DNA from: Lama glama
Taxonomy: Eukaryota
Reading direction: 5' to 3'
Assembly (NCBI GenBank): GCA_028534125.1
Contig: JAPYYK010000093.1
Span: 310,001-374,000, forward strand
DNA length: 64,000 nt
This document shows, one piece after another, positions 10,301 to 13,858 of the stretch; position 1 is the stretch's first letter; every line of letters begins with the position of its first letter. Below the pieces are notes generated by a model that saw nothing but the letters and a program-made list of their open reading frames with translations, searched no databases and had not been told where the DNA came from. Made by a program: the position numbers and the translations under genes.

Positions 10301-13300
10301 TGAGTAGGGGTGGGGTGGGGGGAGGGGGCCGGAAGAACAGCTAGAGAGGAAGGAGACAAGTGGGTGGGGATAAGTATCTAGAAAGGCCTTGGTAGGCTCT
10401 ACCAAATGCTGCCACAAGGTCATGGCACATGAGGCCGGGGACATGGCCTTGGGACTTGGCCATGTGGGACCTTGGACCTTGGCTGGAGCAGAACCTGCAG
10501 AGAGGTTGGACATAGGGCAAGAGTCTGGATGGGGTTTCAGAGGAGCAGAGCATGGGGGCAGGTGGGGACAGACAGACAGACAGACAGACAGATCAGGGAC
10601 CTCTTCTGAAGTGAATGGGTCCAGCAGGCCCCACCCAGGTGGCCTGGGCCTAACGCTCATCACCTGCCCGCAGTGCCCTGGCGGAACCTTCACACCATCC
10701 ATGAAGTCCACCAAGGACTACCCTGATGAAGTGATCAACTTCATGCGCAGCCACCCACTCATGTACCAGGCCGTGTACCCTCTGCAGCGGCGGCCCCTGG
10801 TGGTCCGCACAGGCGCTCCCTACCGTCTCACCACTGTCGCCGTGGACCAGGTGGATGCAGCCGATGGGCGCTATGAGGTGCTTTTCCTGGGCACAGGTAC
10901 CCACTGCTGCTCCCGGCCCCTCCCACGCTGGGCCCACTGGGTGGAGGGTGCTGATCCAGGGGCTGGGACTACCCTGGTCAGGGGTTGGTCGCGGTTGTCA
11001 AGGTCAACTCTGCCATCTTTATCCTCTGGAGCTTTCTCTATGACCAGGACAACTGAGAGCAGGGGTGGGGAAACCCCATTCCCACCCCATCCCTGGTGGC
11101 CAGGACTGGGTGCCTGGGGACTCATGTGAGCAGGAAAAGGGGGAAGATGGCAGATGCCTCCAGGATACATGGGTCCAAATACTGACACACATGCTCTTGT
11201 GTGCACACACCAAGTGCCCCCGCTGCTGTTCAGTAGCCCTCAACACAGAAGAAAACCTCCAACATCCCATTCTCAGCTTCCCAGAATGAGGGCTTGGGGT
11301 CGGAAGGCTGGACTCTAGCTGAAACTCCCCTTTATCCTGGGCCAGCCCCTCAGACCCCTTCCCCTCTTCTGGGGCAACTCTTCATCCTTGGTACAGAGCT
11401 CCTGCTCCACTGCCCCTGGGGGTTTGGGCCCTGGTGGGGGAAGGGGCTGAGGCTGGTGCCCCTTCCCCAGCATCCTCAGCCCTACTGAGGCCTTGCCTGG
11501 CCCGTTCCAGACCGCGGGACAGTGCAGAAGGTGATTGTGCTGCCTAAAGATGACCAGGAGATGGAGGAGCTCATGCTAGAGGAGGTGGAGGTCTTCAAGG
11601 TGGGTGTGACACCACCCAGTCCTGTCCTCCTCACTCTGGCCTTCCTTGGTACCAGCTCCTGACCTCAGACCTCCTGGTTAGGACAGAGAGGGGTCCCTAG
11701 GGTCATGAGCTGATGCCTATCTTCTTCTAGGACCCAGCACCCGTTAAGACCATGACCATCTCTTCCAAGAGGGTGAGTTTTAGCGAGGTGGGCTGGGGAT
11801 GGGGATGGAGCCTGCTTCCCCTTGGGGTCATCCCGTTGGCACAGAGGTGGGTCCGCCCTGAGGCACAGAACAGGAAAGGGAGCAGCCTGGCCCAGCTGGC
11901 TCCCTAGGAGGGCTGGCTGTGGGGAGGGAACTGACAAGCCCCTACCCCTGCCCACAGCAACAGCTATACGTGGCCTCAGCTGTGGGCGTCACACACCTGA
12001 GCCTGCACCGCTGCCAGGCATATGGGGCTGCCTGCGCCGATTGCTGCCTCGCCCGGGACCCCTACTGCGCCTGGGATGGCCAGGCCTGTTCCCGCTACAC
12101 AGCATCCTCTAAGAGGTGTGGACCCCCAGACCCTTGGAATTTTGGCCATGGCCCTGTCCTGGAGGTTTGGAAGTGGATGTGATATAACCCTGAGAGACTA
12201 TGGATGAGATATCCTACCCTGGTGTTTTGAGGGTAGAGGGACCTACGGGGAGGGGGCAAGCTTTCTTTGGAATACTCCTTCAGGAGCTATCTTCATCCAG
12301 GCGGAGCCGCCGGCAGGACGTCCGGCATGGGAACCCTATCAGGCAGTGCCGTGGATTCAACTCCAACGGTGAGTGTGCTGTGTCTCACCACTGGGCACTC
12401 CTTGGCGTGGAGCTGCCCACGGGCCCCTGCTAGAAGGCTTCTTCCGTGGTCCGTGGGGGTGAGGGGATGAGAGGGGTTTTGGAGAAGCGATATCCCTAGC
12501 CACCCCCCTCATGGCACATCCCTGCCTGTTTGGGTGGGTGTCCCTGTATATGCTCCTTGCCAGCCTGCAGTCTGCCCAGAGGCTGGGCTGCTTTCACGCA
12601 GAACTCTCTTGCTCCACAGCCAACAAGAACGCTGTGGAGTCTGTGCAGTACGGCGTGGCGGGGAGCGCAGCCTTCCTTGAGTGCCAGCCCCGCTCACCCC
12701 AGGCCACTGTTAAGTGGCTGTTCCAGCGAGATCCCAGTGACCGGCGCCGTGAGGTGATTTCCCGTGCCCCGTAGTCCTTACCATGGCTGCGGGAGTCCCT
12801 TATACAATAGAAATTCCACGTGGGTGAAAGGTGGTAGAGGAACCCATCTAGGGCACCCCTCATCCTAAGAAAGGCCTTCCATGCTCCCTTTCCTACACGA
12901 AAATCATTTGGGTGAATCCAGTTATATGGAAACTCTGTGAGGTTTCCATATTATATGGAAACCATTTGTAGGCATGCCCATTTATCTGAAAATTCCAGAT
13001 GTGTATTCCATTGGAAGTATATCAGTGTGGTAACATTGTAGGGAAACGTCACATGGGTGAGCTCCAGCACATGGAAATTCTGTGGGGCAGCCCTCATATT
13101 ACAGAAATACCTCCTAGGCAATCCCTTCTTGTGTCCAAGTTCTGCAAGGGTGTCTCAATATCTATTTATTCTCATTAAATAGAAATTGTGTGTATGCTCC
13201 AGAATTCTCTCATTGTACAGAACCCCCTAAGGGTCATTCCTCCCTAAACGGAAGTGCATGTATTACTCAGATGTTATGTGCCTTATTCAGATGTTATGTG

Positions 13301-13858
13301 GCAAATTCATGGGGGCTTTTCTTGGTATATGGAAATTCCACATGGGTGCTCCTATATTGGGTGGCCGAAAAGGTGGTCTGATCTGGGAGCTGGCTGGGGC
13401 AGCAGGGTGGTCACGCCACCCCTGAGCCCCACTCCCTGCCGCTGCAGATTCGTGCAGAGGACCGCTTCCTGCGCACAGAGCAGGGCTTGCTGCTTCGTGC
13501 CCTGCAGCTTGGTGATCGAGGGCTCTACTCCTGTACAGCCACCGAGAACAATTTCAAGCATGTCATCACACGGGTACAGCTGCATGTCCTGGGCCGAGAT
13601 GCCGTCCATGCTGCCCTCTTCCCACCGCCAGTTGTGAGCGTCCCACCGCCCCCAGGCGCCGGCCTCCCAACACCCCCTTACCAGGAGCTGGCCCAGCTGC
13701 TGGCCCAGCCGGAAGTGGGCCTCATCCACCAGTACTGCCAGGGCTACTGGCGCCACGTGCCTCCCAGCCCCAGGGAGGCCCCGGGGGCACCCAGGCCTCC
13801 TGAACCCCAGGACCAGAAAAAGCCCCGGAACCGCCGCCACCACCCGCCGGACACATGA
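4238..13858 (+). CDS. SEMA3F: Semaphorin-3F, 5'-partial spliced CDS (17 exons in window; signal-peptide exon lies upstream)
   Basis: join(4238-4398,4497-4559,4671-4790,5502-5594,7159-7252,8580-8699,8911-9050,9176-9290,9433-9502,9668-9812,10674-10896,11511-11599,11731-11772,11958-12115,12301-12368,12620-12753,13448-13858) = 2246 nt, all GT-AG with consistent phase. Sema domain, PSI ([16 protein letters not shown]), furin site KRRSRR, Ig domain, basic tail [13 protein letters not shown]. Exon numbers below follow the human gene. Confidence 0.98.
4497..4559 (+). CDS. SEMA3F: SEMA3F exon 4
   Basis: ggcag|ATC...AAT|gtgagt; [21 protein letters not shown]. Confidence 0.96.
4671..4790 (+). CDS. SEMA3F: SEMA3F exon 5
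   Basis: cccag|GGT...CAG|gtaagc; [40 protein letters not shown]. Confidence 0.96.
4860..5056 (+). mobile_element. MIR SINE
   Basis: tgtgaccttgggtgagtgactt...gcctcagtttcctcacatgaaaatgggg...gtgcctggcatgtagtaagcgctc closely follows the MIR core and tail. Confidence 0.9.
5502..5594 (+). CDS. SEMA3F: SEMA3F exon 6 (93-nt, 31-aa alternatively spliced cassette)
   Basis: ctcag|GCC...CAG|gtgggc; [31 protein letters not shown]; symmetric phase 0-0. Confidence 0.93.
7159..7252 (+). CDS. SEMA3F: SEMA3F exon 7
   Basis: tgcag|GAT...ATC A|gtgagt; [31 protein letters not shown]. Confidence 0.96.
8018..8458 (+). mobile_element. MER63(B)-like hAT-Blackjack DNA transposon relic
   Basis: AT-rich island: tgctggagcc...ttgttaaattttcag...aatactcaaaactcattacttcctaat...gagtatttacaccacagaaattggc, ending tttaccagcaccccactg (terminal inverted repeat-like); family by recall. 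Confidence 0.8.
8580..8699 (+). CDS. SEMA3F: SEMA3F exon 8
   Basis: cgcag|AC GAG...AAT G|gtgagt; [40 protein letters not shown]. Confidence 0.96.
8911..9050 (+). CDS. SEMA3F: SEMA3F exon 9
   Basis: tgcag|AC CCT...CTG|gtacgc; [27 protein letters not shown]...RIGRICL. Confidence 0.96.
9176..9290 (+). CDS. SEMA3F: SEMA3F exon 10
   Basis: cctag|AAC...CTC C|gtgagc; [38 protein letters not shown]. Confidence 0.96.
9433..9502 (+). CDS. SEMA3F: SEMA3F exon 11
   Basis: tccag|AG GAT...TCG GG|gtgagg; [23 protein letters not shown]. Confidence 0.95.
9668..9812 (+). CDS. SEMA3F: SEMA3F exon 12
   Basis: cacag|C TCC...ACG|gtgagg; [34 protein letters not shown]...PYPRPGT. Confidence 0.96.
10567..10590 (+). 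repeat. (GACA)6 microsatellite
   Basis: Read directly. Confidence 0.95.
10674..10896 (+). CDS. SEMA3F: SEMA3F exon 13
   Basis: cgcag|TGC...ACA G|gtaccc; [31 protein letters not shown]...YEVLFLGT. Confidence 0.96.
11511..11599 (+). CDS. SEMA3F: SEMA3F exon 14
   Basis: tccag|AC CGC...AAG|gtgggt; [30 protein letters not shown]. Confidence 0.96.
11731..11772 (+). CDS. SEMA3F: SEMA3F exon 15
   Basis: tctag|GAC...AGG|gtgagt; [14 protein letters not shown]. Confidence 0.95.
11958..12115 (+). CDS. SEMA3F: SEMA3F exon 16 (PSI domain)
   Basis: cacag|CAA...AAG AG|gtgtgg; [47 protein letters not shown]. Confidence 0.96.
12301..12368 (+). CDS. SEMA3F: SEMA3F exon 17
   Basis: tccag|G CGG...AAC G|gtgagt; [22 protein letters not shown] (furin-type site). 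Confidence 0.96.
12620..12753 (+). CDS. SEMA3F: SEMA3F exon 18 (Ig domain)
   Basis: cacag|CC AAC...GAG|gtgatt; [44 protein letters not shown]. Confidence 0.96.
12795..13360. repeat. Highly degenerate ~30-bp tandem array (about 17 units) in SEMA3F intron 18
   Basis: GAAA-type anchors at 12810, 12840, 12869, 12899, 12929, 12958, 12988, 13014, 13043, 13074, 13104, 13136, then 13182, 13220, 13251, 13302, 13332; approximate consensus CCCTCATTATATGGAAATTCCACATGGGTG. Confidence 0.75.
13448..13858 (+). CDS. SEMA3F: SEMA3F exon 19 (coding part, to TGA)
   Basis: tgcag|ATT CGT...; [29 protein letters not shown]...[13 protein letters not shown]. Confidence 0.96.
   Translation: MRAEDRFLRTEQGLLLRALQLGDRGLYSCTATENNFKHVITRVQLHVLGRDAVHAALFPPPVVSVPPPPGAGLPTPPYQELAQLLAQPEVGLIHQYCQGYWRHVPPSPREAPGAPRPPEPQDQKKPRNRRHHPPDT

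Follow-up and report, generated by a model that had tools for sequence, protein, structure and literature searches.

A decayed tandem array of about 30-bp units in the last intron of a class-3 semaphorin gene, probably an old minisatellite

The window analysed here is a stretch of 64,000 nucleotides from Lama glama (assembly GCA_028534125.1, contig JAPYYK010000093.1, positions 310,001 to 374,000 of the forward strand). It contains a gene for a class-3 semaphorin, probably SEMA3F as judged from synteny, and the last intron of this gene carries a cryptic array of about 19 related head-to-tail units, of which 12 are in phase, about six are broken and the last one is well kept. The last exon of the gene shows an open translation up to the stop codon. 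Searches of the gene against Pfam and the PDB returned Ig-domain matches only, and these were weak. Six paralogous last exons are found elsewhere, one of them 72 kb downstream and five on two other contigs, and a G-alpha exon is located at about 18540, on the 3′ side of the semaphorin gene. An earlier examination of this DNA (hereafter the original prediction) had described a decayed array with a period of about 30 bp that fills the intron. The array is real, and it spans 12791-13362, which leaves part of the intron free, since 572 of the 694 intron bases are covered. The intron and the parts of the array are the following.

12754-13447, + strand: last intron of the class-3 semaphorin gene, 694 bp, with GT...AG splice ends
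12791-13152, no strand: main block, in which 12 units of 26-32 bp follow each other head to tail, with 64% identity to the consensus and 48% pairwise
12810-12826, + strand: 17-bp core of the first unit, identical at 16 of 17 positions to 13332-13348
12899-13152, no strand: higher-order similarity between units 4-7 (12899-13004) and units 9-12 (13043-13152), with 72 matches in 103 aligned bases
12941-12963, no strand: perfect inverted repeat of 11 bp that spans units 5 and 6, which mirrors the dyad symmetry within the unit
13153-13317, no strand: disrupted tail of about six units of the main-block type, whose phase has been lost via indels
13263-13302, no strand: young 20-bp tandem duplication within the tail, about 90% identical
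13318-13362, no strand: terminal unit and trailing part unit, the terminal unit being the closest to the leave-one-out consensus (25/30)
13351-13360, no strand: single perfect CArG-type box in the part unit with which the array ends on its 3′ side

The existence of the array is confirmed. Autocorrelation of the segment 12795-13150 gave peaks at lags 29-31, 60, 88-89 and 118-119, and the signal in the lag band 29-31/59-61/88-91 was above that of all 500 dinucleotide shuffles. An unsupervised wraparound alignment of the whole intron to a cyclic unit of 28-32 bp scored 131.2, compared with a mean of 55.4 and a maximum of 70.6 for 200 shuffles. The best period is 30-31 bp, which is within the 10-100-bp range of minisatellite units. 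In cross-validation, a profile built from units 1-6 detects units 7-12 and vice versa (0/300 shuffles each). The profile of the main block detects the last unit as well (0/300 shuffles) and has no match in the intron ends outside 12791-13362. By a comb statistic the array is the first of 7475 windows, with a narrow lead (6.7 vs 6.6). The period of about 30 bp, which had been assigned to the array as a whole, holds for 12795-13150 and is clean up to about 13152. Taken alone, the segment 13150-13360 is not periodic: its lag signal is equalled by 345 of 500 shuffles, and its wraparound score is 54.2 against a null mean of 49.3. It is nevertheless detected by the main-block profile (35 bits, 0/300 shuffles), and so is the interval 13153-13310 taken by itself (23.1 bits, null mean 10.7, 0/300 shuffles).

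As the original prediction had noted, the AT content is raised across the array, inside a GC-rich gene; the edges of this block are sharp. Its GC content is 42.5%, versus 62.7% and 66.9% in the flanks, and its observed/expected CpG ratio is 0.16, versus 0.47-0.48 in the flanks, which contain exons. All 17 GAAA-type anchors named in that prediction are present at their positions, 11 of them as an exact GAAA and six as variants. It was also right in supposing that a standard repeat finder may overlook the array: Tandem Repeats Finder (TRF) misses it at default settings and recovers parts of it when the penalties are relaxed. The sequence itself is real and near-identical among close relatives. 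In 18 of the 23 listed sequencing runs (5 organism labels, 7 studies), nine of which may be the source, 94-100% of 71 sampled words are present; this is no gauge of constraint. No description of the array was found in the literature searched, though annotation tables in supplements could hold one.

The array is probably an old decayed minisatellite confined to a single locus, and likely neutral. According to PMC5615363, minisatellites have units of 10-100 bp and form short euchromatic arrays. The array resembles typical minisatellites in its 30-bp head-to-tail unit, in its number of about 19 copies and in its single euchromatic locus, and likewise in its traces of block duplication and of an ancestral unit that was shorter, and in its erosion by substitutions and indels. 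It is far more decayed than typical variable-number tandem repeats (48% pairwise identity) and has so far shown no sign of length variation. A further difference from minisatellites is that the end units are nearer to the consensus than most of the inner units. The shorter ancestral unit is visible as a sub-period of 14-15 bp, which scored 51.6 against a null mean of 33.8 and a maximum of 43.4 in 100 shuffles; PMC5615363 likewise describes how a short unit can be duplicated and diverge to give a longer one. The excess similarity of units 4-7 and 9-12 over the median block pair was equalled in 3-19% of neutral simulations and is suggestive only. The sub-period and the five-unit block similarity suggest that the array grew as an ordinary minisatellite and then froze, perhaps roughly 100 Myr ago. 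The original prediction had spoken of an ancient minisatellite, and periodicity, cross-validation, sub-period, block similarity and the low CpG ratio all support this.

The array may have originated from a 15-mer or thereabouts that was duplicated and then diverged into a 30-mer. Duplications of single units and of blocks, by slippage or unequal crossing-over, would then have built the array, and turnover would have ended once the units had diverged from each other. Since then the array has likely decayed without function; decay of old tandem repeats is described in the ULTRA paper (PMC11580682). The clustering of GGAAA would result from the repeated unit together with a slower decay of A runs. 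The Jukes-Cantor distance between the closest blocks, the block being chosen as the best one, is 0.38, or 0.19 per copy. With an assumed substitution rate of about 2e-9 per site per year, this would place the last block duplication roughly 90-100 Myr ago. Neutral simulations gave scores of 98-122 and identities of 0.65-0.68, which we take as reproducing the score and the identity of the array. Neutral decay, which the original prediction had mentioned as the alternative to function, thus gives the best fit and leaves the similarity of the two end units unexplained.

The function favoured by the original prediction was a kept homotypic array of binding sites for NFAT/Rel or KRAB-ZNF proteins, built on a retained GGAAA core. 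The core is retained in the sense that the five best-kept columns of the main block are exactly GGAAA, 0.18 above the unit mean. On the + strand, however, just 5 of the 17 anchors have it intact and the first unit lacks it, and neither the NF-kB nor the NFAT5 consensus is matched anywhere in the array. When all units are counted, the GGAAA columns have an excess of 0.11, about the neutral mean of simulations that had 12 units. A kept binding array is not borne out by these results. The same is true of the meaning given to a period close to three helical turns. Two 14-15-mers that have diverged from each other seem to make up the 30-bp period, so a helical explanation is unneeded, and unit spacings of 26-32 bp would have scrambled the helical phase. 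As judged from the sequence, the evidence for a function of the array is weak.

Some observations weigh against a purely neutral history. The 0.18 excess of the GGAAA columns was reached in 2%, 2%, 2.5% and 11% of 200 neutral runs under four models, with one pipeline applied to both the array and the simulations, and in 2-17 of 150 runs over 16 models with context-dependent rates; taken together, this is 1-11% of neutral runs and borderline. TGGAAA occurs five times in 572 bp, which only 2 of 1542 background tiles equal, a density as expected from a repeated unit. The 16/17 match of the end units, which had been pointed out in the original prediction and is present, lies at lag 522, and no run with one mismatch in the array is longer. 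The two cores differ at a single position, by a CpG transition within a hexamer that resembles an E-box. A 17-bp run with one mismatch appears anywhere in 21/300 and 15/300 neutral arrays, and at a distance above 85% of the array length in 0 of 600. By leave-one-out closeness to the consensus the last unit ranks first and the first unit third of 19, and the ends of satellite arrays tend to be more diverged than the rest (PMC5615363). The tests of core retention, of the end units and of TGGAAA were all picked after the pattern had been seen.

It is unlikely that the minisatellite, neutral in origin, was later co-opted, with some units, chiefly the two at the ends, now selected as candidate binding sites in an intronic enhancer or silencer. 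The sites proposed for this are a Rel/NFAT-type half-site beside an E-box and the CArG box at the 3′ end. The 16/17 match, found at that spacing in none of the 600 simulations, the ranks of the end units, the borderline core excess and the high density of TGGAAA all speak for such a co-option. Precedent is available in tandem repeats that serve as platforms for ZEB1 (Balestrieri 2018, as cited in PMC10250210) and in clusters of the ZNF410 motif at CHD4 (bioRxiv 10.1101/2024.02.24.581901). The array is similar to these platforms in having a dense short motif in the non-coding DNA of a developmental gene. The platforms differ in that their motifs are described as dense and identical or clustered, with demonstrated binding, whereas the motif of the array is intact at less than one third of the anchors. 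The sparse GGAAA cores, none of them in unit 1, the missing NF-kB and NFAT5 consensus, the array-wide core excess close to the neutral mean and the irregular spacing argue against co-option. Compared over the full 30 bp, moreover, the first and last units share 21 bases, fewer than three other pairs (22 each). Quite improbable is the more specific possibility that a minisatellite about 100 Myr old has been domesticated from its ends, so that the first and last units are selected as a putative pair of composite sites separated by 522 bp and the interior is left to decay. We regard it as no more probable that these composite sites would consist of a Rel/NFAT-type half-site beside an E-box, in an element for intronic control of SEMA3F that is hidden from repeat finders. 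The end units may instead be alike through shared history, by later local copying (through template switching, gene conversion or an insertion that brought in a long direct repeat) of one unit with some of its flank, which would make the ends younger relatives of each other than the interior units are. This account is doubtful to a similar degree. After the first core, at 12827-12835, comes a 9-bp word that departs from the consensus of the unit; it occurs again at 13369-13377, 20 bp past the last core. Random pairs of windows of equal size shared at least 9 bases in 102 of 20000 draws, which hints at copying, and the stretch of unit 2 that carries the word has the worst fit to the consensus. 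This test is post hoc, the alignment requires a 20-bp gap, and there is no longer homology at lag 522. The account covers the ends only, and it is compatible with the decayed minisatellite. Post hoc chance, shared history and selection are all possible reasons for the match of the end units.

The array might otherwise be what is left of an ancient transposable element that had tandem repeats inside it, or have been amplified from a piece of such an element. We consider this very unlikely. A sharply bounded, AT-raised block within a GC-rich gene would fit it, and tandem repeats derived from transposable elements have been reviewed (PMC6947457); those repeats also form tandem arrays, as the array does within its AT-raised intronic block, and differ in that no parent element was found for the array. 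A DNA search of the genome returned the array locus and one inverted copy with 100% identity, and nothing else. This second copy (C994580:1425576-1426166) was rejected as an assembly artefact of a mirrored scaffold. In scaffold C994580 three sampled stretches mirror at 100% around a gap of 100 N at 874324-874423, so that the genes there, including the semaphorin gene, appear twice. Scaffolds C1061242 and C1016798 show paired opposite-strand matches of equal score, and the mirrored scaffolds suggest a systematic scaffolding artefact. A 23-mer pattern with up to three mismatches had 29 matches, namely the array and its mirror, four isolated matches and 23 small contigs; none of the 13 non-self matches examined out of 27 (the four isolated ones and 9 of the 23 contigs) is part of an array. 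A 24-mer pattern gave six non-self matches, all six of which were examined and are lone, and a 17-mer pattern gave a single lone one, again with no array. A two-unit pattern had no matches and missed even the array itself, which makes it a weak test. In a scan of 400 kb on both strands the unit profile reached at best 28.6 bits, against 204.9 for the array, and detected no second array, and the six paralogous semaphorin loci contain none (best 14-19 bits). Matches in five metagenome and two viral contigs are single, chance-like and without periodicity, and no relative of the last exon was found in metagenomes. A dispersed family of the unit was found by none of the DNA and pattern searches or the 400-kb profile scan, which a rare, very old family could have escaped. 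No inverted pair lies at the edges of the array among the 25 longest of the 28 listed, and the terminal 17-bp direct repeat is the unit sequence itself.

One lead to a parent element was a pattern match with three mismatches inside a high-copy repeat (4077 candidates). This repeat may be the 3′ end of an old L1, an identity that Pfam did not confirm, as it gave no match. A profile of 28 of the 30 fetched copies, from which two mirror duplicates had been dropped, aligned to the intron with only -0.7 bits over 22 bp (shuffle maximum 0.5) and with no flank homology. In the reverse test, the unit profile scored 11.8 bits on the majority sequence of the repeat, which is below the background, where 532 peaks reach 14 bits. 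An L1 origin of the unit was rejected on these grounds.

Readings as RNA or protein were also rejected. Three Rfam matches had E values of 1.7-2.7, all far under the gathering score, and the + strand does not fold unusually well (z -1.52; 9 of 100 shuffles are equally stable). Stop-free stretches in the six frames reach 87 codons at most, and the unit spacings are not multiples of 3, which speaks against a coding repeat.

As a neutral relic, the array matters little. Should its end units turn out to be under constraint in mammals at large, the array would be a clear example of how a minisatellite can give rise to a regulatory element, here in a gene for axon and vessel guidance. The array also illustrates that repeats invisible to TRF can occupy most of an intron, and 464 kb contained three such arrays. 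They come from a local survey of 1114 tiles over this distance with periods of 15-60, in which the array ranked third, behind another array with a complex unit and a decayed CA-rich tract. Five candidates of the survey were inspected, and two other cryptic arrays with complex units, about 100-110 kb away, held up.

C994580, about 425330-425650: GC-rich cryptic array, invisible to TRF, of about 11 units alternating near 27 and 30 bp, 72% identical to the consensus
C994580, about 432655-432895: decayed cryptic array of about 13 units of 17-22 bp (period 20), 75% identical to the consensus; TRF sees part of it

Both look younger, with 72-75% identity to their consensus, and the array in the SEMA3F intron is the most decayed of the three. 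With two others in 464 kb, arrays of this kind are not rare.

Several minor observations were made along the way. The 23 small contigs matched by the 23-mer pattern are 214-534 bases long and share one identical match; the nine examined overlap each other as near-identical parts of a single AT-rich sequence, and the 23 are probably a collapsed multicopy region. An upstream intron of the semaphorin gene contains an AT-rich block at about 8040-8350, presumably a fragment of a MER63-like DNA transposon. Downstream of the gene, at 16030-16450, there is a long decayed CA/TA-rich tract, most of which TRF misses. A short tRNA-like short interspersed nuclear element, presumably of a camelid type, is present in two copies that are 81% alike, at 44072-44181 (+ strand) and 45689-45760 (- strand), one of them with an (AAAC)n tail.

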